Virus genome (UHGV): UHGV-0101699
DNA from: a virus
Strand: one strand, 5' to 3'
DNA: 64,000 nt
This document shows positions 1,802 through 39,731 of this stretch, in pieces. The notes under the pieces are model-generated. The model did no database searches. It was given only the letters and a program-made list of their open reading frames with translations, and was not told the DNA's origin. The number at the start of each line of letters is the position of its first letter. The stretch's first letter is position 1. The translations under genes were made by a program, and so were the position numbers.

Positions 1802-2446
1802 TTAGGGTTCGTCAGAGAGCTTCTGACGCGCATTTGCGATGCTAAAAACTTCTGCTTTTGGCCGAGGGTCGACTAAATCGAGTTCTGCTTCGCTGTGATA
1901 CTCGATATCAAAGTCCCGTTTGATGTGTCTGATGTAAATCGCTGTGAGCAGGCTGTCTTCTTTCAGGAAGTGGCCATAGGATCGGCGGATCACTTCACCT
2001 ACTTTTTCGATCTTCTCTCCGCCCATACAGAGGTGATTGAATCGACTGTGCTTTCTCAGCATTTCATCAACTGGCCCAGAGTAAACCTTATCCACGACAC
2101 CGAATCGAAGGATCTTCGCAGTATCAGCTTCAACCAGGCAGACAATCTTCCCCTCGGTCAATCTGTCACGCCAGGTAACGCCTGAACGCATAGTGTTGAA
2201 GTAGGGGGTATCCAGACCGATGATCGGTTTTCGAAATGCCAGCAGCGGTACGTATCTGGCACAGCTGTTCAGGTGGAAGTTAACGCCGGCGTCACGCAAC
2301 TTGAGTCGGGTCTCGTTGATGTTGCACTTCGAGGCTATGCCACACAGGCTGCAGAGAACCTTCTCGTTGCTCAGTGTGGAGTTTGATTCTATGGTGTAGG
2401 TTCCGTCTTCCAGACGGCGTACCCAACGTGTGCGTTTTAAGTCCAT
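1802..2446 (-). CDS. hypothetical protein
   Basis: 214-aa ORF with no overlap to neighbouring genes. No motif recognised. Confidence 0.5.
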   Translation of the reverse strand: MDLKRTRWVRRLEDGTYTIESNSTLSNEKVLCSLCGIASKCNINETRLKLRDAGVNFHLNSCARYVPLLAFRKPIIGLDTPYFNTMRSGVTWRDRLTEGKIVCLVEADTAKILRFGVVDKVYSGPVDEMLRKHSRFNHLCMGGEKIEKVGEVIRRSYGHFLKEDSLLTAIYIRHIKRDFDIEYHSEAELDLVDPRPKAEVFSIANARQKLSDEP

Positions 2447-2523
2447 GTTCTCGTTTTAGTGATTGTTGACCGGAACCACGATAGCTTACTAGGCACACCT
2501 GTAATCGCAAATGCCTGTTTTAC

Positions 2524-2604
2524 TTATCCACTTATCCACTGGTTAGATCCCAATAATAAGATCCCTATACAGATCCCTATATAGATCCAAAGAGATCCCC
2601 GATC
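2524..2604. promoter_or_regulatory. origin-like region: two tandem DnaA boxes (TTATCCACT x2, 2524..2540) followed by six GATC sites in AGATCCC-type heptamers (2546..2604)
   Basis: Direct reading. Clustered Dam sites plus DnaA boxes immediately upstream of iterons and the rep gene match P1 oriR-type architecture. Confidence 0.65.
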
Positions 2605-2644
2605 GCCGCAGGCCGCGCCACGCCTGGGCTAAGGACTGATCCGT

Positions 2645-2750
2645 GTATGCTGTCAGCGGTAAACGATATGCTGTCAGCGGTACGGTATATGCTGCCAACG
2701 GTTTTGTGTATGCTATCAGCGGTAATTGACGTATGCTGTCAGCGGTTAGA
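2645..2750. repeat. 5 iterons (TATGCTGTCAGCGGT consensus, ~22 bp period) upstream of rep gene (incC-like)
   Basis: Copies at ~2646, 2667, 2687 (variant GCCAACGG), 2709 (variant GCTATCAGC) and 2733. The two-helical-turn spacing is typical of iterons. Confidence 0.8.
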
Positions 2751-2766
2751 ACCAAAAGGTATCCAC

Positions 2767-3864
2767 ATGTCCACAAGAAAGAAAAAAGAGAGCGATATCA
2801 AAGAAATACCTGAAGATAACGAAATTCTTGAGGAAGAAGCTCTCACTTTGTACACAGGTGACTTAGTTCCTAACAGCAACAATACGGTGCAGCCAATCGC
2901 TTTAATGCGTCTTGGCCTCTTTGTGCCGACACTCAAAGGAACGAAAAATAGCTCTCGCAACAAGTCCAACATGATCGACGCATCCAGAGAGCTTGTCCAG
3001 CTGGAAGTCGCGCGGTCAGAGGGTTATTCAAACATTAAAATCACCGGTCCGCGACTGGATATGGATCATGATTTCAAAACCTGGGTTGGTGTTGTTCGCT
3101 CTCTGGCTGAATACGGCGAGCCAACCGGGCGCGTAGAGCTGAGCATAACGAAGTTCGCCAAGTTCTGCGGCTACCCGTCCTCGCAGATCCGCAAAACCCT
3201 GCGAGACCGCCTGACAAACAGCCTGCTCAAGATCATGCGCACGACGCTGTCGTTCCAGCGCACTCATGAAGAGAAGAACGTCGACGACACCAACAAGATA
3301 TCCCTGTTGATGGTTCACCTCATAAACAGCGTTGATTACAACGAGAAGAAAGACTCTATTGTCTTTTATGCTGAACCTAAGCTGTCTGAGCTCTATCGCT
3401 TTGACCACAAAGTTCTGCTGCAGTTAAAGGTCATCAACAAGCTCCCGCGCAAGGAGACGGCCCAGGCGCTGTATACTTTCATCGAAAGTCTTCCTCCTAA
3501 GCCGGCACCGGTATCTCTTGCCCGGCTGCGCGCCAGGCTCAATCTGAGCACGCGCAACGTCAGCTCGCAAAACCAGACTATCAGGAACGGATTGAAGTCA
3601 CTGCAAGAGCTGGGCTATCTCGAATATAGCGAGGTTAAGCGTGGCCGTTCTGTCTACATCCAGATCCACAGTCGTAACCCAAAACTGAAAGTAACATCGA
3701 GCAAACCCGAGAAGCCAGAGGCGCCTAAGCAGGCAGAAGAAGCGAAGGGTGAAATTGATGCGAAACAGAACCTCAAAAACAAAATTTCTGAGCTGTCGCA
3801 GAACCTGACGCCAGAGAATATCAAGCTGATCGAGATACTCACCAATAGCCTCAAGTTGCTTTGA
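2767..3864 (+). CDS. repA: replication initiator protein (RepA-like, iteron-binding)
   Basis: Start moved to the ATG at 2767 (MSTRKKKESD...); the listed ORF from 2647 runs through the iterons. The 365-aa gene is flanked on both sides by iterons. Gene context identifies it rather than a motif. Confidence 0.65.
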   Translation: MSTRKKKESDIKEIPEDNEILEEEALTLYTGDLVPNSNNTVQPIALMRLGLFVPTLKGTKNSSRNKSNMIDASRELVQLEVARSEGYSNIKITGPRLDMDHDFKTWVGVVRSLAEYGEPTGRVELSITKFAKFCGYPSSQIRKTLRDRLTNSLLKIMRTTLSFQRTHEEKNVDDTNKISLLMVHLINSVDYNEKKDSIVFYAEPKLSELYRFDHKVLLQLKVINKLPRKETAQALYTFIESLPPKPAPVSLARLRARLNLSTRNVSSQNQTIRNGLKSLQELGYLEYSEVKRGRSVYIQIHSRNPKLKVTSSKPEKPEAPKQAEEAKGEIDAKQNLKNKISELSQNLTPENIKLIEILTNSLKLL

Positions 3865-4135
3865 TACGCTGTCAGCGGTTCAACATATGCTGTCAGCGGT
3901 TCTTTTGTCTCAATGTATGCTGTCAGCGGTAAAACGTATGCTGTCAGCGGTACATTTCCACTATCTGCGGTCTTTATAAATCGACATGGCTAACGTCTAA
4001 GGGCAACTGCTGCCCTATGAATGTATGCTGTCAGCGGTGAAAGATATGCTGTCAGCGGTAAAACGTATGCTGTGAACGGCACAAGGTATGCTGCCAGCGG
4101 TAATTCACTGTCAACGTATGCTGTGAGCGGTAATA
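3864..4135. repeat. 9 iterons of the same 15-mer downstream of rep gene in two groups (4+5), incA-like copy-control array
   Basis: Copies at ~3864, 3885, 3915, 3936, then 4024, 4045, 4066, 4087, 4116. Variants include TACGCTGTCAGCGGT, TATGCTGTGAACGGC and TATGCTGCCAGCGGT. Confidence 0.8.
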
Positions 4136-4315
4136 CAGCGCTGGATTAGATATCCTGAAAACGGGCGACGCAGTCGTTGCTTTGCGTCAGGCCCGTGTAG
4201 ATAACAATATGGCTTCCCCAGTGGTCACTAACCGGCTAACCCGCATGAATGCTAGGTTAGTGGTTACTAACAAATGTTATTCCATCACGCTTAAAACGCG
4301 CTGCAGAAACATCGG

Positions 4316-4528
4316 TTAGTGGATCTGCTTGAGCAAACCCCAAAGCGTTTGTGCTTTCGATGTGAGTTTCCCGGTTTCAGGATCAAACATGCGCCATTCC
4401 CTACGCTGGTGGATGATGTAACCGTCTTCGCGTTCCAGACGCTCCAGCATGTCCGGTTTTCGGAAGCCTTTCGCTCTCCAGTAGCCGCTTGTTTTCTCAA
4501 TCTCAAGACCAGTCATTGTGAGAGCCAT
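4316..4528 (-). CDS. hypothetical protein (70 aa)
   Basis: Strong SD (GTAAGGAGG, 7 nt spacer) before the ATG at 4528. The start overlaps the stop of the upstream gene as TAATG, which indicates translational coupling. Confidence 0.6.
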   Translation of the reverse strand: MALTMTGLEIEKTSGYWRAKGFRKPDMLERLEREDGYIIHQRREWRMFDPETGKLTSKAQTLWGLLKQIH

Positions 4529-7575: not shown

Positions 7576-9921
7576 TTACTCGATGGTTTCTGTAGTGCCA
7601 GAAGACAGGTCTTTAGCTCGACGTTCGTCGATGGCCTGTAGCGCCGCAATGATCTCAGGAAGGGGCTTATCACGATACATGTCGACTATCTGCGATTTGG
7701 TGTACTTCTTGTCGCCAATCTCTACGCGGCCGCTGGCATTCTTTGGCAGGTATCCTTCTTCGAGCATGTGCTCAACCAGTGACTCGATAACGTCCAGACC
7801 GCGGGTCGGGTCGAAGTAGAATTTCCATGAGCATTTGCCGAATGGCGGTGCCACTTTGTTTTTGATGCACTCGGCGCCAACGTCCTGACCGATCTTATCT
7901 TTGCCATCCTTCATGACAGAAGCGCCAAGACGAATACGTACTGAGGCGTAGAACTTCGGAGAATCACCACCAGGGGAGGTGGTCGGATCGCCAAACATCA
8001 CGCCGATTTTTGTACGAACCTGGTTAAGGAAAATAATGCAGGCATTGTACTTGCGCGCCCATAGCGCCAGCGTTGGAAAGTTGGCGCTCGTGGCGCGAGC
8101 CAGGGCCGTATTATCGTTCATGTTTAGCTGATCTTTATCCTTCGCTGTACCTTCCGCCATTTTGTCGAACTTCTCGGCTTTGGAGTTTGGCACCATTGAC
8201 GCAAGGGAGTCGGCTACGATGCAAATAGGGGCGTCTGCGGGGATCAGCTCTTCGTCTCGCACCAGTTTCAGGATGGTGCCGATCAGCTCAACCGATTCTT
8301 CGAATGTGTCCGGCTGCTTATAGACCCACTGGCCGTCATCCTCATCCGCATTCAGCCCGTTTGCCACCGCCAGACCAACGTCAAAGCTGTTTTCGTGGTC
8401 GAGGAATACAGCCAGACCCTCCTGTTTCTGAGCGGAGACCATGGCGGCCGTCGCCAGGAATGTGTTGTGGCTGATAATCCCGTTAGACCAGAAAGAGTGT
8501 GTTTCCGGCATCGCTACGTCGAACGTTGGTGCTTCACCTTCCTCAATAGCCACGACTTCGTCGTAGAACAAGTTAGAGTCAATTACCGCTGCCAGTTGTG
8601 CAAACAGATGCTCGTTAAAACGATTCTTTCTGCCAATGAAGGAGACATAGATTTCTCGCAGTTTGTCTATTCCGACACGATCGCCGCGGCCAATAACGTG
8701 ATCTACCAGAACGTAGTCTTTACGAGAGGTCTTGGTGAGTGACTCGTAGAGTGATTTCACTAAGCCGCTGATGTGCGGAACGTAGCCTAAATAAGTGCGG
8801 TCAAAACTAATGTCCCGTTTGGTTGCCACTGCTAAACGAGCCGGAGACTCGAACCCAATCGTTGACAGGAAAAGGTCGTAGTTAGAGCCACTGAATGACA
8901 GCCGGTAATATATGTTTTTATAACCTGCGACGTGTTTTTCAGAGATAGTTGACGTAATCCCCAGATTCAGGAGCATGAGGCGAATTTGCTGTAGCAGCAG
9001 CCCACTCGCGCTCACAACCTCAATGCAGCGACCATCATTGACGTGGCATTCCAGCTCAAAGTAGCCGCGAAGGAATGCAATTTGAGCCTCGCTATTGGCG
9101 CGACGCACACTCAACGGAACCTGCTTGCCAGCAGCTTTCTCATACTCCAGACCATATTCTTTAAAAAGCAGCGAACGCACCTCTTTGCTAAACAGCACAT
9201 GGTCTTCCGAGCCGTTATGTTTTCTCGTAACTGGCATCTTGTCTGATACCAGCGAAATGAGGCGGTAGTACTCATCCTTGATGAATGGATCTGTGTTAGA
9301 AAAATGCACAGAATTTTCAGAGGCCACGTATCCGTCAGCAATTAAATAGCCCATCAGTTTTGCGATATTGGCATCCAAGTGCTGATCGCCGAATTGATGT
9401 GTGCCAACCATTGAAGGAATCGTGTCGCCTACACTGATTTTTTCAGCATACCGCCAGACGATATTGCCTAAGTCGTCAACCACACGAATTGGGTGACGGA
9501 ACGTAGCCTCGATGTAACCCCCTGATGCCAGCTTAATGCGCTTGAATTTGCGACGGTTGTTCCATGTCAGGTGTGAGGTCTTCTCTATCACGCCATTTTC
9601 ATTGATGAGTCCAACGTTATGCTCTACATCGCGAGTAGTGCATGTTGCTTTGTGCCCCTCAATCTCAAACAGTTCTTTCACTGTTACCATTCCACGCTCC
9701 GTCAGCAGCATGGTGTCTGCGGTAACACATTTCCCCGCACTTGGCGGCCCAAAGATCTCAACGATACGTCCGCTTGGGAAACCGCCGTCATAGCGCCCGG
9801 AGATGGCTTTATTCAGCGGAGGGAAGCCGGAATCAATCCAGTGTGAAACCTTTTGGATCTCGTCATTGCTGCCGATTTTCTTTTTTAATGCCATTGCCAG
9901 TGCTGATTTTCCTTTTGCCAT
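7576..9921 (-). CDS. recA: RecA-family recombinase interrupted by a 422-aa intein at the P-loop
   Basis: Exteins align along their full length with E. coli RecA (GRIVEIFGPPSAGK|TFLA; IFLNQVRTKIGVMFGDPTTSPGGDSPKFYASVRIRLG; KNKVAPPF). The intein lies between GK and T. Confidence 0.85.
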   Translation of the reverse strand: MAKGKSALAMALKKKIGSNDEIQKVSHWIDSGFPPLNKAISGRYDGGFPSGRIVEIFGPPSAGKCVTADTMLLTERGMVTVKELFEIEGHKATCTTRDVEHNVGLINENGVIEKTSHLTWNNRRKFKRIKLASGGYIEATFRHPIRVVDDLGNIVWRYAEKISVGDTIPSMVGTHQFGDQHLDANIAKLMGYLIADGYVASENSVHFSNTDPFIKDEYYRLISLVSDKMPVTRKHNGSEDHVLFSKEVRSLLFKEYGLEYEKAAGKQVPLSVRRANSEAQIAFLRGYFELECHVNDGRCIEVVSASGLLLQQIRLMLLNLGITSTISEKHVAGYKNIYYRLSFSGSNYDLFLSTIGFESPARLAVATKRDISFDRTYLGYVPHISGLVKSLYESLTKTSRKDYVLVDHVIGRGDRVGIDKLREIYVSFIGRKNRFNEHLFAQLAAVIDSNLFYDEVVAIEEGEAPTFDVAMPETHSFWSNGIISHNTFLATAAMVSAQKQEGLAVFLDHENSFDVGLAVANGLNADEDDGQWVYKQPDTFEESVELIGTILKLVRDEELIPADAPICIVADSLASMVPNSKAEKFDKMAEGTAKDKDQLNMNDNTALARATSANFPTLALWARKYNACIIFLNQVRTKIGVMFGDPTTSPGGDSPKFYASVRIRLGASVMKDGKDKIGQDVGAECIKNKVAPPFGKCSWKFYFDPTRGLDVIESLVEHMLEEGYLPKNASGRVEIGDKKYTKSQIVDMYRDKPLPEIIAALQAIDERRAKDLSSGTTETIE
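8464..9729 (-). mobile_element. LAGLIDADG-type intein (homing endonuclease domain) inserted in recA Walker A
   Basis: It begins with Cys (GK|CVTADTML) and ends with ...IISHN|T. Two LAGLIDADG motifs are present (KLMGYLIADGYV, IAFLRGYFELECHV). The codon boundaries were checked against the nucleotide sequence. Confidence 0.8.
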
Positions 9922-13910: not shown

Positions 13911-15080
13911 TCATTTGTTAATAGTCTCCGCAACCTCTGCCAGAATGGCTTCCAGCTTTTCTCCTTCCTCTGGACGGAAGTACAAAATATTCGGGTTAAA
14001 TCCATAGAACACGGTCACGTCCAGGTCTGGCAGATATTCTTTGCGCCCAACAAGATCGGATGGCTTGCTCTTGTTATTAAACAGCGATGTCGCCCGGCTG
14101 CCGCACGTCAGCACGTAAGTTGGACGAACCAGATTTATCTCTTCCCGCATAAAGTCGATAAACTGGCCGATCTCATCTTTGGTGTAGTCTTTTTCCTTAT
14201 CCTTTACCTTTTTACACACGCCTGTGACATACAAATCACCCATACGCAGGTCACCAGAAACCAGCAACTTGGCTTTGAAGTCATCGTAGCCGTTCTCCAT
14301 GAAGTAGCCGGTACGTGCATCATTGCCATTGGCGTTGTCGAGTATGACCATAATTTTTGGCTTAATGCCGATGCTTGGTCGTATCAACTCATCGCCCAGA
14401 CCCATTTCTGCGGCCATGCGAGTCATCAGCACATTGACCTCTGCAGAGCGTTTTGGGTTCATTTCAAATGGGCGTGAAGCTTTCACCGCATCGATCACCA
14501 GATTGCCCATCAGCTCTGCCTGATCGCGCAGACGTTCCGGATCGGTCGCCGGCATACTGCCAGGTTCAATAGAGGCGAATGCACCAACCTTTTGTAGAGA
14601 CTCACGTACTCGGCTGTTACAGGCTCGCTTCTCGACCGCTTCCTCAAATTGCTCAAGTGACTCGAATTTGCCGCCAACTTTCTCACGCGCTCTCATGATG
14701 GCCTGGCAACCATTCTCAGAGCAGCCTTTCACAGCAGAGAATGGCGCATACAGAACCTGGCTGCCGTCTTCCAGCGTGCGGATCTCAATTCGGTTAGATG
14801 ACACGTTAACGTCTGGTGGCAATACGCGAATGCCATAGGTCAGCGCATCCTTAACCAGCCCCTGGTGCTTATCCTCGCCCAGAATGGTGAGAGCAGCAGC
14901 GAAGAACTCAGCAGGGTAATGTGTCTTTAACCACATAGACTGATAGCTGATCAGCGAGTAGGCAACGGAGTGTGATTTGTTGAAGGCATATCCACCGAAC
15001 TTCTCAAAGGCGTCCCATACTTCTTGGGCTTTCTCAGGGCTAAGACCTTCCTGCTCGGAAATAACTTTGGCAATTTTCAT
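13911..15080 (-). CDS. dnaE: DNA polymerase III alpha (DnaE-type), C-terminal part (fingers tip, beta-binding, OB, C-terminus)
   Basis: GYAFNKSHSVAYSLISYQSMWLKTHYPAEFFAA is the hallmark DnaE segment. Alignment with E. coli DnaE places the split between KNG and INAE. Confidence 0.8.
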   Translation of the reverse strand: MKIAKVISEQEGLSPEKAQEVWDAFEKFGGYAFNKSHSVAYSLISYQSMWLKTHYPAEFFAAALTILGEDKHQGLVKDALTYGIRVLPPDVNVSSNRIEIRTLEDGSQVLYAPFSAVKGCSENGCQAIMRAREKVGGKFESLEQFEEAVEKRACNSRVRESLQKVGAFASIEPGSMPATDPERLRDQAELMGNLVIDAVKASRPFEMNPKRSAEVNVLMTRMAAEMGLGDELIRPSIGIKPKIMVILDNANGNDARTGYFMENGYDDFKAKLLVSGDLRMGDLYVTGVCKKVKDKEKDYTKDEIGQFIDFMREEINLVRPTYVLTCGSRATSLFNNKSKPSDLVGRKEYLPDLDVTVFYGFNPNILYFRPEEGEKLEAILAEVAETINK

Positions 15081-15796
15081 GTGTTTTTCCCGTCATTAGC
15101 TTCAAACGCTAGCTTTTTTAAGATATTTGCGATTTGAGTGTTAGAGATGCCGAATTTTTCTCGCAACTTTTCATAGGTTGCGCCAGCCTTGCGCAAGGCG
15201 ACCACCTCAGCTCTTGCTTCAGCATCCAGTTTTTTGGATGCTCTTGAGACAACGATCGGCCCACCAACTCGTGCCCATTTCTTCCCGGTGACGATATGGT
15301 GAATGTAAAGCTCAGTTAAACCATATTCGGCCGCGAGGTCTTTGTTCAGAGCGCCTTCTGACTTTTTAATGCGAATAGCAATGACGACTTCGTTGGTTAG
15401 CTTGGCGTTGTAGCGCCTCTCACCAAACTCAACGGTATCGTGTGCAATGGCGTCAGCCATGTTGTCGACTTGAGTGCCATACGCGAGATTGGAGGGCGCA
15501 TTGTTTGATGGTCTTCCGTCAAGATGACGAATAAGTAAGCCTTCTGGTCGTTCTCCGTGGAATGCAGTTGCTACCAGATAATGGACTGTGCGGTCGCATT
15601 TGACGCCGTTGACGCTTAGTTTCACGCCCAGATGTCCAAAATCATTGATTACGCGAGGTTTGAGGATTTGCCCCTTCTTCACCCATTCGCCCCCATTGGG
15701 GGCTGTTCGTATAACATCTAAAGAGCGAATGCGACCTAAACTGGATGCTTCGTAATAACCTTCAAACTCAGGAATGGATTTCCAAATTTCTTCCAC
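15077..15796 (-). mobile_element. free-standing HNH homing endonuclease gene inserted within dnaE (NUMOD4 + HNH_3 type)
   Basis: EEIWKSIPEFEGYYEASSLGRIRS (NUMOD4-like) and HYLVATAFHGERPEGLLIRHLDGRPSNN (HNH). It sits exactly between the two dnaE parts with ATGA/TGA overlaps. The probable start is a GTG with a GGAG SD. Confidence 0.8.
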
Positions 15797-15798
15797 CG

Positions 15799-18162
15799 TC
15801 AAACTCCAAAATCAACAATATCAGCGTTATCACCAATCGCTTCGTCATAGGTTCTGCGTTTGCCGTCAGAGCACATCAGCTTGGCCTTTTTGTGGACTTC
15901 TACTGTGCTTCCGTTTTCAAGTGACAGTGTCACCCAACCTGCTTGCGCTCGTTCTACAAAATCGCTGCCGATCGCTTTCATCTTATCCATGTTCTTTTTA
16001 CCGATAGCGGAACGCAGAGCGTCAGCCTCAGCCATAGAGAATCCAGCGAGTACGCGAGAGCTTTTCATGATCTGCTCTTGATAGAGTAAAACGCCGTTGG
16101 TTTCTTTAGTTGCTTCCTCAAGACGCGGATGAATTGAATGTGGAGCCATAAAACCTTTTGCCACGGAGACATAGTCGTCCAACATGCCTGACTGAATTGG
16201 ACCTGGTCTGAAAAGCGCAGTTGTGGCCACAATGGTTTTGAAGCTCATTGGCTCGATACCACCACCCAGATCTTTGAGTAGCTTCCTCATGGGGCCGGAC
16301 TCAAGCTGGAACACACCTTGCGTATACCCCGCGGCGAATCCATCAAGTACTTTGCGATCATCCAGTGGGATGGCATCGAGGTTGACGTCCTTACCGGTGC
16401 TCTCTTTGATGTAACGTTTTGCGCTATCCAGCAGATCGAGAGTGGCCAGGCCCAGAACGTCCAGTTTGATCAGCCCCATGGCCTCGCAGTATCGTTTATC
16501 GAATGCGATGCAACGCGCGTCTCCACGTCGCTCTACAGGGGTACGTTCCGTCAGAGGTACGCCAGCAACAATCATCCCTGCAGCATGGCGGCCGAAGCCA
16601 CGCATCAGGTTTTGCAACTTGCTCGCCGCCTTAAATGCGTCCGGATGTTTGGTGGCGTACTTGTCCAGGCTGGCCAGCTGCTCGCGCAGCTCCGACAGAG
16701 ATAAACTGTCATCCTCCAGGGTCTTTAGCTCCTTGGAAACAGCCATATCCGCCGCATCAACTCCATAAATACGCGCTGTGTCGCGCAGTGCGGAAGCGGC
16801 GCCCAGATAAGTGAAGTTCGGAATGCCTGCAACATACTCTTCGCCATATCGGGCATTCAGATACTCGATCACCTCATGGCGCCGCGCCTGGCTAAAGTCC
16901 AAATCCGCATCCGGCAAGTCGAGACGTTCAGGGTTAATGAAACGTTCGAACAGAAGACCATGACGGATTGGGTCAACGTTAGTAATGCCGATGCACCATG
17001 CCACCAGAGAGCCGGCGGATGAACCACGACCTGGCCCGACAGGAATACCAGTCTCGCGACTATGATTCATCAGATCGCGAACCATCAGGAAATAACCGCA
17101 GAATCCCAGGCGAGTGAGCGTTTCCATTTCATACTTGAGGCGATCGACGTAAATGCGGTGCTCGGAAGCTGGTGGCGTGTAGCCAAATTCTTTGTTGCTG
17201 AGACGTTTTCGAAGCCCTGCGACAGCCAGTTTCATCAACGTTGCAGGCTCATCGTCTGCCATTTTTGGCAGCGCCGGCGCCATCTCGTGCCAGCGCCATT
17301 CGCACGCCTTAACAATGGAGTCCTGCGTTGTAGAAGCCATGGCGGCAGACACAGATACGCCCATCCGGACAGAAAACTCTTTCAGAGCCTGCAGCAGATG
17401 ACGGCGACCATTTATTGCATTGTCGCGCTGGTGGGGGATACGCAGCCGGTGTGGCTGATCGACTTTGATATTGTTCATCACCATGTGGGCGATGTCTTTG
17501 ATGTCAGCGTCATCAACCCCTTCGTAATAAGCTGGGTAAAACGCAACGGGCTCGATTTTCAGTGCGCTTGCCACTTTCATGGCTCGCACGTTGATCTGGT
17601 CATAGAATGGCGTAGGGTGTGGATATACGACGCTGTAGAAATTATCGCGTCCACCGGCAGTAATCAGCGCACTAATAATTTTAGCGAAGTCCGGGCGCTG
17701 GAATACGCTGCCGATATCCGAAGTCAGTAACAGTATATTGCCTTTAGCGTATGTAGCCGCCAACTGGTCGAGCGCCAGGCGTGGCACGAAGTAAAACTGC
17801 TCGCGGGTATTGGCTAAAGTCATTAGTTCGCAAATGTCGCGATAACCTTGCTCGTTTTTAATCAGTGCGGTGAAGCAGTAGTTACGTCCACGCTCCAATG
17901 ATTCCATACATCCATTAGACTCTTTAGCCAGTTTAGCCCGGTACTCGTATGTTGGATCGTCGACAACATTCAGCTTAACACCACAGATCACCGCCATCTC
18001 ATCGCCAGCTGCTCGTTGCAGGGGGATAACGCTGGCGATATTCATCGTGTCAGCAGAGATAACCGCGGTATAGCCAGCCTCCTTTGCCACCTTTACTGCG
18101 TGCTCTGCTTTCAGTGCTGATTCTCCCAGGGAAAAATCAGTCCTGACCATCAGTGCTTTCAT
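15799..18162 (-). CDS. dnaE: DNA polymerase III alpha (DnaE-type), N-terminal part (PHP, palm, thumb, fingers)
   Basis: PHP-domain N-terminus. The last ~45 aa (WVTLSLENG...DFGV) have no DnaE counterpart, so they are read-through after the split point. Confidence 0.8.
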   Translation of the reverse strand: MKALMVRTDFSLGESALKAEHAVKVAKEAGYTAVISADTMNIASVIPLQRAAGDEMAVICGVKLNVVDDPTYEYRAKLAKESNGCMESLERGRNYCFTALIKNEQGYRDICELMTLANTREQFYFVPRLALDQLAATYAKGNILLLTSDIGSVFQRPDFAKIISALITAGGRDNFYSVVYPHPTPFYDQINVRAMKVASALKIEPVAFYPAYYEGVDDADIKDIAHMVMNNIKVDQPHRLRIPHQRDNAINGRRHLLQALKEFSVRMGVSVSAAMASTTQDSIVKACEWRWHEMAPALPKMADDEPATLMKLAVAGLRKRLSNKEFGYTPPASEHRIYVDRLKYEMETLTRLGFCGYFLMVRDLMNHSRETGIPVGPGRGSSAGSLVAWCIGITNVDPIRHGLLFERFINPERLDLPDADLDFSQARRHEVIEYLNARYGEEYVAGIPNFTYLGAASALRDTARIYGVDAADMAVSKELKTLEDDSLSLSELREQLASLDKYATKHPDAFKAASKLQNLMRGFGRHAAGMIVAGVPLTERTPVERRGDARCIAFDKRYCEAMGLIKLDVLGLATLDLLDSAKRYIKESTGKDVNLDAIPLDDRKVLDGFAAGYTQGVFQLESGPMRKLLKDLGGGIEPMSFKTIVATTALFRPGPIQSGMLDDYVSVAKGFMAPHSIHPRLEEATKETNGVLLYQEQIMKSSRVLAGFSMAEADALRSAIGKKNMDKMKAIGSDFVERAQAGWVTLSLENGSTVEVHKKAKLMCSDGKRRTYDEAIGDNADIVDFGV

Positions 18163-18342: not shown

Positions 18343-19575
18343 TTAACCGAAGATTTTCTGAACCACTTCACGCGCCGCTTGCGCAGAGGTGGAGGGGAGT
18401 TTATTGATGAATGACTTCTCGATGCCGGCTGCGAAATCACCTCGCATCATTCCGATTTTTGCGGACAGAAGCAGCTCACGCGGGCCGATTGGTTGGCTGA
18501 TCAGGTGTTGCTCATACCCGTCTCGTACCAGATTGGCGAACTTAACCATTTTTTCGGCGTATTCACGGATGATTCCCGCTTCAACCAGCATGTTCACCTC
18601 AGCACCAGGCTTCATGTACTTGACGTGAGATACGATGCCAAAGCGAGAGAAGTTAGCCGCGTTCTGGATGTTCGTTCCTTGATAAAGCCCCGTTTCATCC
18701 CCTGAACCATTAGTGTTGCCTGTACCGATGAAGGCGAAGCGCTTATGCGGCGCCACGCGACGCCAGTCAGGTGTCGCTTCTTTGATTACGAGTGGTTCGC
18801 CTTCCAGAACTGGCTGGTAGATCCCCAGAATCTGCGGGAATGCAAAATCGTATTCGTCTGCCAGATAGACCCAACCGTTCTTCATCGCCAGCGACAGAAG
18901 CCCAGGTTCAAAGTAGGTTGTGCCTTCTCGCGCCAGAATCTGGCCCGTAATATGGGCTTCCTCAGTTGATGCCGTATGCTGTGAGCGGATAACCGGGCGA
19001 TTCAGGAGCGCGCAAAGCTGGGTTGGCAGAGAGGTTTTCCCCGTACCAGCATGACCCCACAGATAACCAGGAATGCCGATCTCCAGCATCATGAAGATGT
19101 CTTTAATCAGATCGAAGTCGCCGTATACATAGCCGGCTTTCACTTCTGGCACGAACTCCGGATATGGCGTGTTGATGTTGACCGTCACCTGAAGGGGTTT
19201 GCCTCGGGGCGTGCCAAGTTCCTTGATAGTCAGGCCAAGCAGCTCGTGCGCGGCGACAAGCTCAGTTTTGTATTCGACTGTCCCTGCATAGCCAGGGTGG
19301 GAACTGATATCCGCGATTTTGCCGTCTGCGCCAGCCTTCTCAGAGCGTTTATTCTTTAACGCTTCAATGGCCTTTGGAGACAGCGTTGGTTCCCCGGGGA
19401 ATGCTGTGGTGTACATTTTCACTACGTCATCCACACCAAGCCCTTTGGCTTCTTCCGGAATTCCTTCGCACCGACCCATCGAAATGTGGGATTTGAGGTG
19501 ATGGAAGGATTTTCCGCACCATTTGCAGGTGACGGCATCAGAGTGGGCGTTTTGTGGTAGCGCAGTCGCGGTCAT
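18343..19575 (-). CDS. AAA+ ATPase, MoxR/CobS-like
   Basis: Walker A GHAGTGKTSL. N-terminal CxxC...C zinc motif. Paired with a downstream vWA protein in the CobS/CobT arrangement. Confidence 0.7.
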   Translation of the reverse strand: MTATALPQNAHSDAVTCKWCGKSFHHLKSHISMGRCEGIPEEAKGLGVDDVVKMYTTAFPGEPTLSPKAIEALKNKRSEKAGADGKIADISSHPGYAGTVEYKTELVAAHELLGLTIKELGTPRGKPLQVTVNINTPYPEFVPEVKAGYVYGDFDLIKDIFMMLEIGIPGYLWGHAGTGKTSLPTQLCALLNRPVIRSQHTASTEEAHITGQILAREGTTYFEPGLLSLAMKNGWVYLADEYDFAFPQILGIYQPVLEGEPLVIKEATPDWRRVAPHKRFAFIGTGNTNGSGDETGLYQGTNIQNAANFSRFGIVSHVKYMKPGAEVNMLVEAGIIREYAEKMVKFANLVRDGYEQHLISQPIGPRELLLSAKIGMMRGDFAAGIEKSFINKLPSTSAQAAREVVQKIFG

Positions 19576-22554: not shown

Positions 22555-22935
22555 ATGACAATGGCCGATGAGAAGACCGCTCGTTACGTCGCCTACATCG
22601 ATTCTTTAATCACTGTTTCGCCGAAAAGTCAGTCGGCGATCTCCCGTGAGATTGGTTACAAGAATCCCAACATTTTGTCCCTGATAAAAAAGGGAAGAAT
22701 TCCGCTGCCGGTAGAGAAAGTGCTACCACTGGCAGAAGCACTGAATGCAGACCCAGTACGTCTCATGATGATGGTTCTTGAAGACCGTCAGCCTGAGCTG
22801 GCAGATTTTTTACGAGACCAGGGCATAGCGCCGCTGACTCCGGAAGAACGTGAGGTTCTCGCAGCTTTCCGCAACCGCTTTCCGGCTCAAACTGATGGTG
22901 TTGAGCAGGTTGTGGAAGCAATTAAAAAGCTATGA
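22555..22935 (+). CDS. HTH (XRE/Cro-CI-like) transcriptional regulator, putative
   Basis: The SQSAISREIGYKNPNILSLIKKGR helix-turn-helix pattern is the only + strand gene in this block. It converges on the recombinase gene. Confidence 0.5.
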   Translation: MTMADEKTARYVAYIDSLITVSPKSQSAISREIGYKNPNILSLIKKGRIPLPVEKVLPLAEALNADPVRLMMMVLEDRQPELADFLRDQGIAPLTPEEREVLAAFRNRFPAQTDGVEQVVEAIKKL

Positions 22936-24030
22936 GAAGTTTACTCTGATCAGCTCGGTGGATAGGCGATCTCCCTTCATTTTGTGGTCAATTTCTTCTA
23001 AATCTGGTTGCTCAACAATCGACGAGATGTACGATGAGAAGCTCTCAAGGGCTTCTCGCATCTGATCCATGTAGTCATATCGGTCGTATACACGGTCGAT
23101 ACCTTCCAGACTATGATTCATGATCTTACGTGATACTTCCTGAGAAATATTAAGGGCTGGAAAGTAGCTGCGTGCCGTTCTACGCAGATCACGTGGGGTA
23201 AACGACTCCACTTCCCCAAGCTCTGGTCGCTCTAGAATCCGCCTCAACGCCTGGGCTATTGCAACCTTTGACATTGGCGTATCAGCTTTCTTTTTGTTCG
23301 ACGGGACGAGCCACTGGCTGCCGGCGCCATAAGCAATCAATTCTTCTACGCACTTCCGCATCAGTGAGCTCATCGGAAGGGTGTGCGACCGGGCCGATTT
23401 GTTGCGAGACCCTTGATTCCATACATTTAGCTTAAGGTCGAACTCGCTTACTCTGGCCCGCAGCACTTCATCTGGACGTCTGGCAGCTACGAGGCAAAGC
23501 CTTGCCGCCCATTTCGTGCCTGGACATACGTCGAAATAGTCCCAGACATTCCAGAATACCCAAACCTCTGCGTCCGTCAGGCATCGTTCCCGCGGGGCCG
23601 TCTTCGCGCCGCCGGCAACTTTGTTCAGCGACATATCATTCAGGGGCGATGTTTCGATAATTCCCTGGAAGGCACACCATCCCAGGAACTGCTTCATGAT
23701 GGAAAAAACACGGCGACCCATCACGATCTTCCCTTCAAGGATCAGCGGGTTGACCAGCTGATTCACCATTATTCTATTCAGGTTACTTACTTTTTCCTGA
23801 GCGATATGCGGGAGAACATGTATCAAAACACAATGGACAGCTATCTCGGGCCGGCGGCGAGTTATCAATAATGATAAGCGAGTGAATAACATGAATGCGT
23901 CGGCGAAAGTCAGATCGGCTCCCTGCATCGAGACCGATCTGGCATCCATCTGCGATGCCCGATCCAGATAGGTGATCGCTTCCTGTGACGTGTTTTCCGC
24001 TGCGCGTGCTCTGTCAAACGTGTTTTTCAT
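22930..24030 (-). CDS. tyrosine recombinase / integrase family protein
   Basis: C-terminal catalytic signature HTLPMSSLMRKC...FTPRDLRRTARSY...HSLEGIDRVYDRYDY (R, H-x-x-R, Y). Confidence 0.85.
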   Translation of the reverse strand: MKNTFDRARAAENTSQEAITYLDRASQMDARSVSMQGADLTFADAFMLFTRLSLLITRRRPEIAVHCVLIHVLPHIAQEKVSNLNRIMVNQLVNPLILEGKIVMGRRVFSIMKQFLGWCAFQGIIETSPLNDMSLNKVAGGAKTAPRERCLTDAEVWVFWNVWDYFDVCPGTKWAARLCLVAARRPDEVLRARVSEFDLKLNVWNQGSRNKSARSHTLPMSSLMRKCVEELIAYGAGSQWLVPSNKKKADTPMSKVAIAQALRRILERPELGEVESFTPRDLRRTARSYFPALNISQEVSRKIMNHSLEGIDRVYDRYDYMDQMREALESFSSYISSIVEQPDLEEIDHKMKGDRLSTELIRVNFS

Positions 24031-24052: not shown

Positions 24053-24083
24053 TTTTATACTGTGTTTATATACAGTATATTAG
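24053..24083. promoter_or_regulatory. candidate recombination core site: inverted arms TATACTGT / ACAGTATA around an 8-bp spacer
   Basis: Direct reading (CTTTTTATACTGT-GTTTATAT-ACAGTATATTAGG), immediately upstream of the recombinase start. The lox/dif-like geometry is my interpretation. Confidence 0.35.
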
Positions 24084-24379
24084 GCATTGTTTTTATTGAG
24101 ATCAACCTAAAATACCCTCTTTTGTCTAATGATTCCATACCTACCAAGTATGGAATCATAGAAAGGCCTTTTTTTGAAAATTAGTCATCAGGGCCGTGCA
24201 TTTCCCGCTTGTTTGTTTGCGACATCACCCTTGTCTTTGCGTTATGTCCCATCGTTGTCCGGTGCCAGTTTAGTCATGTTTGCGTCTATGGCTGTCTCGA
24301 TGCCGCCTGGTCTCGAAGGGGGGACTTCGTCAATTCATGATATGATAGCTTTAATGGTATAGCTATGAAGGAATCATAG

Positions 24380-27622: not shown

Positions 27623-27710
27623 TGGCGGAGGATAATGGAATCGAACCATCATCGCTTTCGCAATGGGACGGTTTTCAAGACCGCTTGGGCGCCATGCCCT
27701 CTATCCTCCG
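27623..27710 (-). tRNA. tRNA-Ser (anticodon UGA), long variable arm, CCA encoded
   Basis: Folded by hand: 7-bp acceptor CGGAGGA/TCCTCCG, T-arm GGTTCGATTCC, anticodon loop CUUGAAA. Confidence 0.75.
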
Positions 27711-27856
27711 TTCGTTGTGACGCCAGATGCTTATCTTCTGGTTGCTTCAACGAGCTGCAATTCATCACAACGGTAAGGGCATTCAGGGAATCAGATCCGT
27801 CGCGAACAGCCAAAGAGCGCGCCTTCCTTGCTGTCGTCCAAATACCCTTACCGTTG

Positions 27857-27931
27857 TGGCGATGGTGGGTGGATTCGAACCACCGACCAGTTGATTAACA
27901 GTCAACCGCTCTACCACTGAGCTACACCATC
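27857..27931 (-). tRNA. tRNA-Asn (anticodon GUU), CCA encoded
   Basis: GATGGTGTAGCTCAGTGGTAGAGC...CTGTTAATC...GGTTCGAATCCACCCACCATCGCCA. Its acceptor stem differs from that of the host asn tRNA, so it is the phage's own tRNA. Confidence 0.8.
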
Positions 27932-38661: not shown

Positions 38662-38698
38662 ATTTCTAAGGCTGGCCTGCATAGACAGCCTTAGAAAT
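38662..38698. terminator. bidirectional hairpin TTTCTAAGGCTG-(11)-CAGCCTTAGAAA
   Basis: 12-bp perfect inverted repeat between convergent genes. Confidence 0.6.
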
Positions 38699-38703
38699 TT
38701 ATA

Positions 38704-39066
38704 TCAGCCTTTCTTCATCAACTCGCGCTTTATTTCGTCAGTACGCATCGTCACATCAGCAGCGGTGATCGCCTCGTTCATCTTTACGATGTCCTCTATT
38801 TCCTGCGGGGACTTCTCTGCCAGATGGAAAATGGCTGCACGTATCACATCAGAACGGGTGAACTTCTCGAAGCGAGGGATGAACTTCATCATCTCCAGTA
38901 ATTCGAAATACTCGTCTTCAAGAGACATCGTGCGGCTTTTGATTTTCTCTTTGCCACGTGTTGGACGGCCTTGTGGACGGACAGGCTGGCGCATCGGGGT
39001 GCTGCTTTTAGGTGCAGCAGCTTCCGCAGCCGGACGTTTTGCCAGATCACCCATTTTCATGGACAT
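38704..39066 (-). CDS. ribbon-helix-helix protein, ParG/CopG-like centromere-binding partner (putative)
   Basis: Disordered basic N-terminus, then an RHH pattern (RTMSLEDEYFELLEMM...RSDVIRAAIFHL). Sits directly downstream of parA with an ATGA overlap. Confidence 0.45.
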   Translation of the reverse strand: MSMKMGDLAKRPAAEAAAPKSSTPMRQPVRPQGRPTRGKEKIKSRTMSLEDEYFELLEMMKFIPRFEKFTRSDVIRAAIFHLAEKSPQEIEDIVKMNEAITAADVTMRTDEIKRELMKKG

Positions 39067-39731
39067 TATTCACCCTCCAAGGTCATTACGTATTCTACTA
39101 ATGCTTCAATCTCGGCCTCAGCCTTTTTGTCGCGCTCGGCTCCAGTCATCTCAAATATGGAACGACCCGCCTCTTCGGCATCGTCATAGACGTTGCGGTT
39201 GTAAAGATTCACCGGTACCGCCTCAATGCCAAAGGTTTCGACAATTTCTTTTGCAGCGATAATGCGCGCAGCCTGGGAAGGCAGAGACGGGCACTGGTTC
39301 ATTACAGCACGGATTTTGATTTGGTCATTCACGCTGCTAACGCTGTCGACGATGGGGTCGATGTCACGTAAGGATTTCAGATCGCGGCGTTTCGGGCGAA
39401 GCGGGATAAGGATCACGTTGGCCATCAGCATAGCCTGGCGCTGAATTTCGGAGTCGAAACCACCAGCGTCAACGACGACGTAATCGAAACGGCCGCGAAG
39501 CGAAGTGATGTGTTTGATGATGTCATCCTGGACATAGGCGAACGGGATCAGCTCCAGTTCTTCATTGTGCCGGCGGTCTTCACACCACCCTGTCGTGGTG
39601 CGCTGGATGTCGATATCAGTGATCTGGACTTTCTTTTTCTTTTTGATTTTCAGACAGGCTGCAATTTGCTGAGCAACAGTCGATTTGCCTGGGCCACCCT
39701 TGGTGCCGCCCACCACAATGATCTGAGTCAT
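39066..39731 (-). CDS. parA: ParA-family partition ATPase (small type Ib-like)
   Basis: Deviant Walker A TKGGPGKST (KGGxGKS/T) and DYVVVDAGG. 221 aa with no N-terminal HTH extension. Confidence 0.7.
   Translation of the reverse strand: MTQIIVVGGTKGGPGKSTVAQQIAACLKIKKKKKVQITDIDIQRTTTGWCEDRRHNEELELIPFAYVQDDIIKHITSLRGRFDYVVVDAGGFDSEIQRQAMLMANVILIPLRPKRRDLKSLRDIDPIVDSVSSVNDQIKIRAVMNQCPSLPSQAARIIAAKEIVETFGIEAVPVNLYNRNVYDDAEEAGRSIFEMTGAERDKKAEAEIEALVEYVMTLEGE

Follow-up and report, generated by a model that had tools for sequence, protein, structure and literature searches.

Positions 2524–4131 of the 64-kb window (the whole stretch of viral DNA analyzed, 64,000 nt) very probably form the replicon that maintains an SSU5-like phage-plasmid of Klebsiella (pKpn group) in its plasmid state, a member of the P1 oriR/RepFIB iteron family typed as IncFIB(pKPHS1). 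Such a replicon would let the phage persist as a free plasmid. Homology of its RepA protein, a predicted WH1–WH2 fold and likeness to P1 oriR together support the reading of a plasmid prophage with an iteron replicon of the P1/RepFIB type. The analysis established how the sequence is laid out, that both the protein and the origin DNA have homologues, which fold the protein is predicted to adopt and that the region occurs on plasmids; all replicon functions are assigned by homology to P1 and RepFIB, and every biochemical step considered below is one that we infer.

Anatomy of the replicon

The region reads, from the outer edge of the origin to the end of the downstream iterons, as follows:

2524–2540, + strand: two tandem DnaA boxes (TTATCCACT, twice) at the outer edge of the origin, distal to repA
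2545–2604, + strand: AT-rich GATC cluster of five AGATCC[C/A] heptamers plus CGATCG, with six Dam (GATC) sites; candidate unwinding and sequestration region
2601–2645, + strand: GC-rich spacer (71% GC) containing GCAGGCCGCGCCACG, an element common to P1 oriR
2646–2746, + strand: five origin iterons (incC equivalent) starting at 2646, 2667, 2688, 2709 and 2732 (spacing 21, 21, 21 and 23 bp)
2759–2767, + strand: DnaA-box-like GTATCCACA, one mismatch from consensus, adjoining the repA start codon
2767–3864, + strand: repA, encoding a predicted 365-aa iteron-binding initiator (Pfam, PHROG, P1 RepA homology, AlphaFold model)
3865–3951, + strand: downstream array, block 1, four direct iterons starting at 3865, 3886, 3916 and 3937
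3952–4023, + strand: 72-bp gap between the two downstream blocks
4024–4131, + strand: downstream array, block 2, five direct iterons starting at 4024, 4045, 4066, 4087 and 4117

The 64 kb contain just two exact copies of TTATCCACT, at 2524–2532 and 2532–2540, with one T common to both. The adjacent GATC sites (2546, 2560, 2572, 2584, 2594 and 2601) amount to six in 59 bp at 40% GC, five of them lying within an AGATCC[C/A] heptamer, and constitute the densest such cluster in the window (Poisson P = 6e-7 for a fixed 59-bp stretch, ~0.04 after the 64-kb scan). An earlier note, made from the sequence, had called the tandem DnaA boxes, six GATC sites in ~60 bp and a 365-aa initiator gene, all of which were recovered here.

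With up to three mismatches allowed, the iteron TATGCTGTCAGCGGT matched 17 times in the window vs. 1.6 matches expected, a number reached by none of 100 shuffles; 14 of the 17 matches fall within the replicon, all on the + strand. The conserved core spans 15–16 bp and recurs with a period of 21 bp, occasionally 23 or 30 bp, so that the five plus nine copies counted in the earlier note stand, while its period of ~22 bp needs correcting. The first downstream iteron starts directly after the repA stop codon. Reading of the sequence revealed a weak, degenerate tenth downstream iteron inside the 72-bp gap (3957–3971, 10/15 matches), and folding of the gap gave no significant secondary structure (z-score –0.7), for which reason we propose none. 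A lone iteron-like 15-mer elsewhere (18975–18989, two mismatches) lies inside a coding gene and, with an estimated ~0.1 such matches expected by chance, was treated as a chance match.

The repA frame starts with an ATG preceded by an AAAGG ribosome-binding site that ends 7 nt upstream, and this start codon is backed by both the ribosome-binding site and the alignment of homologues. Four iterons hold in-frame ATGs, and it is these alone that let the open frame reach back to 2647 (405 aa); the 405-aa 'RepB family' model found in databases appears to be an error. The protein comprises a WH1–WH2 core (approximately residues 40–305) and a C-terminal helical tail (residues 327–364). It matched Pfam Rep3_N above the gathering score (E = 1.4e-8), PHROG 775 (E = 1.8e-131) and, by BLASTP, P1 RepA with 45% identity over 278 aa (E = 1e-84); a scan against NCBIfam returned no family. 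When its AlphaFold model, of moderate quality (mean pLDDT 70.5; 70–90 over most of the core), was searched with Foldseek, the matches included RctB domains 2–3 (E = 1e-7), RepE (3e-5), Pi (3e-2) and the WH1 domain of pPS10 RepA (4e-2). Together with the Rep3_N match, this modeled fold places RepA in the Rep_3/WH1–WH2 iteron initiator superfamily (RepE, Pi, pPS10 RepA, RctB core). As a sequence search against PDB chains gave chance-level matches only (E > 0.5), the kinship to RepE, Pi and RctB is visible solely at the level of the fold.

A consensus scan for a repA promoter identified none on the + strand, and the best candidates of a relaxed scan scored 7–8/12, mostly without the T that is conserved as the sixth base of the –10 hexamer. 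Since no convincing sigma-70 promoter could be placed within the iterons, autorepression by RepA is only assumed.

Kinship with P1, RepFIB and SSU5

The experimentally annotated oriR of phage P1 served as the reference for the origin. Across the core, which runs from the DnaA boxes over the GATC heptamers and takes in the GCAGGCCGCGCCACG spacer, P1 and the window share 80% DNA identity; the tandem DnaA boxes align with the annotated DnaA site and the GATC cluster with the annotated Dam sites 1–5. P1 likewise harbors five origin iterons (spacing 21, 21, 21 and 22 bp) and, beginning at the repA stop codon, nine downstream iterons, the 5 + 9 count agreeing with the P1 annotation. Together with the 45% identity of RepA, these similarities bear out the oriR/incC/repA/incA layout proposed in the earlier note. 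A DnaA-like box between incC and repA is also present in P1 (CTATCCACA) and in JK004 (TTATCCACA), and a homologue of P1 Cra (41% identical) is encoded near the replicon.

The two systems differ in several respects. The P1 iteron is ATGTGTGCTGGAGGG vs. TATGCTGTCAGCGGT here, and P1 RepA (286 aa) lacks the ~56-aa C-terminal tail. P1 incA consists of three direct plus six inverted iterons at 31–41-bp spacing, in contrast to nine direct copies at 21–30 bp in blocks of four and five; the '4+5 split', which the earlier note had traced to P1, is thus real in the window but no feature of P1. Given these differences in orientation and spacing, the geometry of iteron pairing may deviate from that of P1. 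The phage backbone of P1, moreover, is unrelated to the SSU5-like backbone here.

By RepA identity, the nearest experimentally studied relatives are RepFIB (~50%) and SSU5 (53%), not P1. RepFIB of IncF plasmids (P307, F, pO157; RepA identity by tblastn) shares the C-terminal tail, a DnaA box and ~5 GATC sites upstream, and iterons on both sides of rep, but differs in iteron sequence and resides on conjugative F-type plasmids instead of a phage. The F-type RepFIB RepA family counts at least 5000 plasmid records. Its downstream iterons alone have been found experimentally to exert incompatibility, which fits handcuffing (PMC11983097). Our ad-hoc consensus scan resolved the RepFIB arrays poorly, so that the comparison of iteron counts is confined to the other replicons. 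Salmonella phage SSU5 (and pHCM2), of the same phage-plasmid supergroup, has the order of the window (DnaA box, GATC sites, iterons, repA, iterons), yet differs in its iterons (AACCACTGTAGAGAG), an extra upstream iteron cluster, a mixed-orientation downstream array and an origin core just 56% identical (P1: 80%).

More generally, a common layout unites P1, JK004, SSU5, PhiR41_1, F-type RepFIB and a Pantoea plasmid with the window: one or more DnaA boxes, ~5 GATC sites at ~11-bp spacing, 5–6 iterons at 21 bp (read in all but RepFIB), repA and again iterons. For instance, a GATC cluster between DnaA boxes and iterons was also seen in JK004, PhiR41_1, RepFIB and the Pantoea plasmid, and a five-copy 21-bp origin array in P1, JK004, PhiR41_1 and the Pantoea plasmid, with SSU5 possessing six copies at equal spacing. 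Iteron sequence varies between the lineages, as expected if specificity co-evolves with RepA.

Two further readings touch on these comparisons. The all-direct 4+5 array and the ~56-aa helical tail of RepA were offered as a basis for a variant control geometry with a mode of handcuffing or RepA oligomerization other than that of P1; the unusual likeness of the origin core to P1 (80% identity vs. 56% to SSU5) was offered as a basis for recombinational exchange of the host-factor-facing origin module between unrelated phage-plasmid lineages. We regard this combined proposal as rather unlikely.

Plasmid state, partition and recombination loci

A 1.9-kb region covering the replicon was 95–99% identical in 312 plasmid records and six 'Klebsiella phage' records. 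These more than 300 near-identical Klebsiella plasmid records are mostly ~110 kb in size, and those inspected were circular. In pINF192.5 the region is 99.3% identical, and PLSDB describes this plasmid as ~110 kb, circular and non-mobilizable, with IncFIB as its sole replicon. The flanking 25 kb are 97–99% identical to Klebsiella plasmids, with the same neighboring genes. The RepA of pJN2-26 matches this one at 99.5% identity, and pKpn-group relatives reach 100%. Indeed, the IncFIB(pKPHS1) phage-plasmids of this group (pKPHS1, pJN2-26, ST13-OXA48phi12.3, vB_Kpn_1825-KPC53) carry essentially the same DNA, with nothing substantive differing; pJN2-26 has eight downstream iterons vs. nine here, and PhiR41_1, another close relative, has a 5+4 arrangement. 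The rep gene of pJN2-26 was reported to share 95% identity with the IncFIB(pKPHS1) target (PMC9241755), and our assignment proceeds via this published match and the PLSDB type of pINF192.5. Judged by its near-identical rep, the ~110-kb non-conjugative relatives and SSU5-like genes, the window fits the IncFIB(pKPHS1)/pKpn group of the SSU5 supergroup, in line with phage-plasmids of the SSU5 supercommunity being mostly IncFIB (PMC7969092).

The novelty implied by the earlier note is consequently lost, as the replicon is known from hundreds of sequenced plasmids, where it is catalogued as IncFIB(pKPHS1)/IncpKPHS1. In the published IncpKPHS1 description, the downstream iterons number just four and RepA has 'no known domain' (PMC6735626). 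With only four iterons in the accessible literature, the full anatomy amounts to a modest refinement of annotation. In contrast, the plasmid-prophage lifestyle suggested earlier is well supported by near-identical DNA in more than 300 plasmid records and by the classification of SSU5-like elements as extrachromosomal phage-plasmids (PMC7969092, PMC9600943). The window also has phage context, with tail and lysis-type genes and its own replisome. In one study, phage induction failed for a related Klebsiella element, p2 of Kp1604 (PMC8969562); some members may thus be plasmids with defective phage functions, which leaves the replicon itself unaffected.

Two loci remote from the replicon bear on its maintenance:

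22930–24030, – strand: tyrosine recombinase, 366 aa (Pfam Phage_integrase, E = 1.7e-9); candidate multimer resolvase or cyclization enzyme
24129–24159, no strand assigned: perfect 12-7-12 inverted repeat, ATGATTCCATAC-N7-GTATGGAATCAT, ~100 bp upstream of the recombinase gene; candidate recombination site
38704–39066, – strand: 120-aa ParA partner, a putative centromere-binding protein (PHROG 5111, unknown function)
39066–39731, – strand: parA, encoding a small 221-aa Walker-type partition ATPase (Pfam AAA_31, MipZ, CbiA, ParA; PHROG 164, ParA-like, E = 2e-49)

Large ParA proteins with an N-terminal DNA-binding domain are of type Ia; by its size, the 221-aa ParA would class as type Ib. P1 places a large ParA, ParB and parS directly downstream of incA (parA start ~270 bp past incA), an arrangement that is absent here, the small ParA lying 35 kb away. 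Of the parA/ribbon-helix-helix pair named in the earlier note, ParA was recovered by Pfam and PHROG; the partner had no Pfam match, its ribbon-helix-helix assignment being drawn from the sequence pattern alone. A search for centromere-like repeats around the par operon yielded a 13-11-13 inverted repeat downstream (38662–38698) and otherwise short, chance-level repeats, and we accordingly put forward no parS. As for the recombinase and 'lox-like' site of the earlier note, the integrase family and the perfect repeat held, whereas the enzyme does not resemble P1 Cre: BLASTP against Cre gave E = 0.53, upon which we rejected it as a Cre homologue. A Cre-family recombinase with a 13-8-13 lox site, as in P1, was not found here.

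Is the replicon what keeps the element as a plasmid? It might be a silent or vestigial FIB-type replicon, with the plasmid state kept by another replicon in the ~110-kb element or by phage replisome genes. F's own FIB replicon is poorly functional owing to weak Rep translation (PMC11983097); the window represents 64 kb of the ~110 kb, leaving room for a second replicon outside; no clear repA promoter was found; and the element encodes a DnaB-like helicase, a primase and Pol III alpha. This is nevertheless very unlikely, as repA is intact, with its ATG start and AAAGG ribosome-binding site, and the 14 iterons, DnaA boxes and GATC sites are conserved at 95–99% in more than 300 plasmids. Besides, for a complete plasmid that is nearly identical PLSDB reports no replicon other than IncFIB, and Wang et al. 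described each IncpKPHS1 plasmid as having just one repA and one iteron-regulated replicon (PMC6735626). We likewise ascribe a very slim chance to the element being primarily an integrating prophage that employs the recombinase as integrase and the iteron replicon for transient or lytic replication only. More than 300 relatives, mostly ~110 kb, were deposited as plasmids; SSU5-, P1- and N15-type elements were exclusively extrachromosomal in the complete genomes examined by Pfeifer et al. (PMC9600943); a partition ATPase operon is present; and the window's two tRNA genes are both complete rather than fragmentary. What speaks for integration is the presence of a Phage_integrase-family gene without similarity to the dimer-resolving Cre, and the attL/attR labels in the GenBank record of pJN2-26 (MZ779062). 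We rejected these labels as evidence because they coincide with two iterons flanking repA, and read them as an annotation artefact; they, too, appear to be database errors.

The role of the nine downstream iterons can also be questioned. Instead of exerting negative copy control, they might be another origin of replication, or a site at which RepA mediates partition in the manner of a centromere, given that the array is all-direct and in part phased at 21 bp like the origin array, and that the par operon is remote, with no centromere identified beside it. This we hold to be extremely improbable. No DnaA boxes or GATC cluster adjoin the array: the last GATC, at 3828, is within repA, and the only nearby DnaA-like match is at 4196 on the minus strand, with one mismatch. 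In the homologous P1 and RepFIB replicons the downstream array is the incompatibility and control element (P1 annotation; PMC11983097), and the copy number and arrangement of the array vary among close relatives, as is typical of a dosage-type control locus.

Proposed mode of replication and relevance for the family

In our working model of an active, plasmid-maintaining replicon, RepA monomers would bind the five 21-bp-phased iterons beside the origin, and host DnaA the tandem boxes at its far edge, both proteins jointly opening the AT-rich GATC-heptamer stretch between their sites. This stretch would require Dam methylation and, in its hemimethylated form, be sequestered, limiting re-initiation. 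By occupying the origin iterons, RepA probably represses its own promoter as well. The nine downstream iterons would act as the copy-number and incompatibility locus, binding RepA and handcuffing, in cis as well as in trans, with the iterons of the origin. As a low-copy element, the prophage would rely on the unlinked parA operon and the tyrosine recombinase for its segregation. The helicase, primase and Pol III alpha encoded by the phage itself would serve lytic replication.

This is a textbook-type iteron replicon in a recognized element and raises no new biological question. An accurate map of it (the true 365-aa RepA, 5 + 9 iterons, DnaA boxes and Dam sites) serves replicon typing, the repair of database annotation and the design of curing cassettes, the RepFIB downstream iteron block by itself being able to displace a plasmid (PMC11983097). 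This family of Klebsiella phage-plasmids is very common and includes carriers of ESBL or carbapenemase genes; its plasmid lifestyle, copy number and incompatibility would all be set by the replicon.

Origin, initiator gene and iteron arrays

Reading of 2300–4500 together with a repeat finder bore out the replicon anatomy described in an earlier note almost to the base, as follows:

2524–2532 and 2532–2540: tandem DnaA boxes TTATCCACT, with one T common to both
2546, 2560, 2572, 2584, 2594 and 2601: six GATC sites in 59 bp, directly 3′ of the DnaA boxes
After the GATC cluster: GC-rich spacer (45 bp, 71% GC)
Starts 2646, 2667, 2688, 2709 and 2732, +: five origin iterons, upstream of repA
2759–2767: DnaA box with one mismatch, GTATCCACA, between the last origin iteron and repA
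2767–3864: repA, 365 aa
Starts 3865, 3886, 3916 and 3937, +: first block of four downstream iterons
Starts 4024, 4045, 4066, 4087 and 4117, +: second block of five, past a 72-bp gap

An exact motif search found the nonamer TTATCCACT at these two places only in the 64-kb window. GATC density, scanned over the whole window, peaks at the origin cluster, where five of the six sites have the heptamer context AGATCC[C/A] and the DNA is AT-rich (40% GC vs. 49.6% for the window overall). The Poisson probability of six GATC sites in one given 59-bp stretch is 6e-7, or ~0.04 allowing for 64,000 positions. A smaller second cluster (4 sites in 65 bp, 23913–23980) falls within the tyrosine recombinase gene, at its 5′ end.

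The iteron 15-mer TATGCTGTCAGCGGT, allowing ≤3 mismatches, matched the window 17 times (1.6 expected; 0 of 100 shuffled sequences reached 17), with 14 matches at the replicon, every one on the + strand. According to the information profile, the iteron core is kept over 15–16 bp, with weakly conserved A-rich flanks. Folding of the gap between the downstream blocks revealed no significant structure, and the gap holds only a degenerate iteron (3957–3971). Elsewhere, a lone iteron-like 15-mer (TATGCTGTGAGCGGA, 2 mismatches, 18975–18989, +) inside an AAA_5 ATPase gene overlaps a DnaA-like TTATCCGCT (one mismatch, 18984–18992, −); as ~0.1 such 2-mismatch matches are expected by chance, the pair is probably a coincidence.

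The repA ATG at 2767 follows a ribosome-binding site (AAAGG) whose 3′ end lies 7 nt ahead of it, and the aligned methionine is the start in most RepA homologues, together indicating that the true RepA has 365 aa. The frame reaches back to 2647 only because four iterons hold in-frame ATGs. The public PGAP model ('RepB family plasmid replication initiator protein', 405 aa) starts at the ATG in the first origin iteron, thereby gaining 40 residues of iteron translation (MLSAVNDMLSAVRYMLPTV..., window 2647–2766), and recurs among database proteins (e.g. P0001, 640 member sequences). Promoter scans placed no convincing candidate for repA.

RepA matched Pfam Rep3_N, the WH1 domain of iteron initiators, above the gathering threshold (E = 1.4e-8), and PHROG 775 (E = 1.8e-131). 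It shares 45% identity with P1 RepA over 278 residues (BLASTP, E = 1e-84), covering nearly the whole 286-aa P1 protein, and by tblastn 53% with RepA of SSU5 and ~50% with RepFIB RepA of F-type plasmids, within a family found on at least 5000 plasmid records. An AlphaFold model with 32 homologues as input (mean pLDDT 70.5) reached 74–90 over most of the core (~residue 70 to 300), dipping to ~55 near 210–230, with disorder in the N-terminal 41 residues and the linker 308–328 and a helix pair at the C-terminus. Foldseek searches of the PDB with this model retrieved WH1–WH2 initiators, namely RctB domains 2–3 (1e-7), RepE (3e-5), Pi (3e-2) and the pPS10 RepA WH1 domain (4e-2).

Relation to the P1 and RepFIB replicons

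The P1 record, which annotates a DnaA site, five Dam sites, five incC (origin) iterons, PrepA, repA and nine incA (downstream) iterons, was aligned to the window. By this alignment, homology to P1 oriR, whose annotation rests on experiment, extends to the non-coding origin DNA: from the DnaA boxes to the spacer motif GCAGGCCGCGCCACG, a stretch that takes in the GATC heptamers, 80% of positions are identical, compared to only 56% for SSU5 over the same stretch. Across the iterons, identity to P1 falls to 44%, the P1 repeats (ATGTGTGCTGGAGGG) being unlike those of the window. A DnaA-like box equivalent to 2759–2767 is present in P1 and in Cronobacter phage JK004. The rankings of the origin core (2505–2645; 80% P1 vs. 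56% SSU5) and of RepA (45% P1 vs. 53% SSU5) are thus opposed, which hints at modular exchange, or at differing constraint on origin core and initiator.

A layout scan of six relatives (P1, JK004, SSU5, E. coli phage PhiR41_1, an F-type RepFIB locus and a Pantoea plasmid) revealed a family-wide order of DnaA box(es), ~5 GATC sites at ~11-bp spacing, origin iterons at 21 bp, repA and further iterons beginning at or just past the repA stop codon. Origin iterons number five in four relatives and six in SSU5; those of RepFIB were not resolved by the scan used. Iteron sequence varies from lineage to lineage, and the downstream array is variable even in close relatives:

Window: 4 + 5, direct
pJN2-26: 4 + 4
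PhiR41_1: 5 + 4, other spacings
P1: 3 direct + 6 inverted
JK004: 3 + 5
SSU5 and Pantoea plasmid: mixed orientation

The earlier note had equated the window's arrays with the P1 layout. The counts of five and nine do coincide, but its attribution of the 4 + 5 split to P1 was wrong because the P1 array is divided and oriented differently. Its core interpretation is supported despite such incorrect details: by sequence and layout, the replicon belongs to the P1/RepFIB iteron-replicon family.

On the basis of homology with P1, whose replication control is well established, and with RepFIB (PMC11983097), we propose that RepA monomers would occupy the five phased origin iterons and DnaA the tandem boxes, with opening of the intervening AT-rich GATC-heptamer stretch, whose Dam methylation state would gate initiation. 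RepA sitting on the origin iterons would also repress repA, while the nine downstream iterons would bind RepA and pair with the origin iterons in cis and in trans, and so determine copy number and incompatibility. For RepFIB, a resident FIB plasmid was displaced by the downstream iteron block on its own but not by the upstream one (PMC11983097).

Partition, recombination and other features

Further features of the window include:

13911–15080, −: C-terminal DNA polymerase III alpha ORF (HHH_6)
15077–15802: HNH/NUMOD4 homing-endonuclease ORF
15799–18162, −: DNA polymerase III alpha ORF (PHP, alpha and finger domains)
22930–24030, −: tyrosine recombinase (Phage_integrase, E = 1.7e-9)
24129–24159: perfect 12-7-12 inverted repeat, ~100 bp upstream of the recombinase gene
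38704–39066: ParA partner, 120 aa
39066–39731, −: parA, 221 aa

The earlier note's parA/ribbon-helix-helix pair held for ParA, an ATPase by Pfam and PHROG that its small size would class as type Ib; the partner had no Pfam match, and a ribbon-helix-helix fold is plausible for it from sequence. In P1, parA abuts incA, whereas here 35 kb separate it from the replicon. Just 3′ of the operon, a perfect 13-11-13 inverted repeat (ATTTCTAAGGCTG ... CAGCCTTAGAAAT, 38662–38698) is a candidate terminator or centromere-like site.

The claimed recombinase is likewise present, with the inverted repeat upstream of its gene, but a comparison of the enzyme with Cre detected no similarity (E = 0.53). Between the recombinase start (24030, −) and the repeat lies a perfect LexA box (TACTGTGTTTATATACAGTA, 24058–24077), the sole match in the window (0.04 expected), which suggests that the recombinase operon, or induction, is under SOS control; P1 has a LexA site beside cre/coi. 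Adjoining the replicon, a 70-aa ORF (4316–4528, −) shares 41% identity (E = 9e-13) with Cra, the 'cre-associated' protein of P1, here ~18 kb away from the recombinase gene. Both tRNA genes, tRNA-Ser(tga) and tRNA-Asn(gtt), are complete (27623–27931, −).

A RecA-like recombinase gene (7576–9921, −) is split by an intein with a LAGLIDADG homing-endonuclease domain (Pfam RecA in two stretches, LAGLIDADG_3, Intein_splicing). DNA polymerase III alpha occupies two ORFs (13911–18162, −) with the homing-endonuclease ORF between them, an arrangement that may reflect a split gene or invasion by a mobile element.

Identity of the element

The 1.9-kb replicon region recurs at full length and 95–99% identity in 312 plasmid records, almost all from Klebsiella and mostly 107–113 kb and non-mobilizable, and is equally similar in six 'Klebsiella phage' records, including ST13-OXA48phi12.3, vB_Kpn_1825-KPC53 and pJN2-26. 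The top match, pINF192.5, is a circular 110-kb plasmid typed IncFIB only in PLSDB, and such plasmids match 92% of the window's first 25 kb at 97–99% identity. The window also carries phage genes, encoding a Peptidase_S74 tail-spike chaperone, an NlpC/P60-JAB tail-tip protein, giant ORFs of 4058 and 1519 aa, and its own replisome (DnaB-like helicase, primase, Pol III alpha, gp32-like SSB, 5′–3′ exonuclease and ligase).

Pfeifer et al. defined an SSU5 supercommunity including a Klebsiella 'pKpn' group, and found typable phage-plasmids to be mostly IncFIB, chiefly SSU5-related (PMC7969092); the same group found such elements only extrachromosomally and most tested ones inducible (PMC9600943). The rep gene of pJN2-26, whose RepA is 99.5% identical to that of the window, has 95% identity to the PlasmidFinder IncFIB(pKPHS1) target (PMC9241755). 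Wang et al. described 'IncpKPHS1' plasmids with a single iteron-regulated replicon and SSU5-like regions, reporting no known domain in RepA and, downstream of its gene, only four iterons (PMC6735626). The replicon is thus the catalogued IncFIB(pKPHS1) replicon of Klebsiella SSU5-like phage-plasmids. The plasmid-prophage conclusion of the earlier note was right, with this database and literature evidence as its strongest support, outweighing the par, recombinase and tRNA features.

An integrating prophage is contradicted by the hundreds of plasmid records and the extrachromosomal finding (PMC9600943). The pJN2-26 record (MZ779062.1) does label attR and attL (20 bp each, 2753–2772 and 4023–4042), but these fall on two RepA iterons flanking repA, and we take them for an artefact of prophage-finding software, not genuine att sites. 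A silent FIB replicon, with maintenance by another replicon, is unlikely given that repA is intact and conserved, as are all the sites, that IncFIB is the sole replicon typed on a complete relative and that a single repA was reported (PMC6735626). Nor is the downstream array likely to be a second origin, as neither DnaA boxes nor a GATC cluster adjoin it.

The element and its replicon, an IncFIB(pKPHS1) phage-plasmid origin, are therefore already known, the full P1-like origin anatomy being more detailed than in the print descriptions found. The remaining value lies in the corrected annotation and, with low probability, in mechanistic consequences of the all-direct control array or of the C-terminal tail of RepA.
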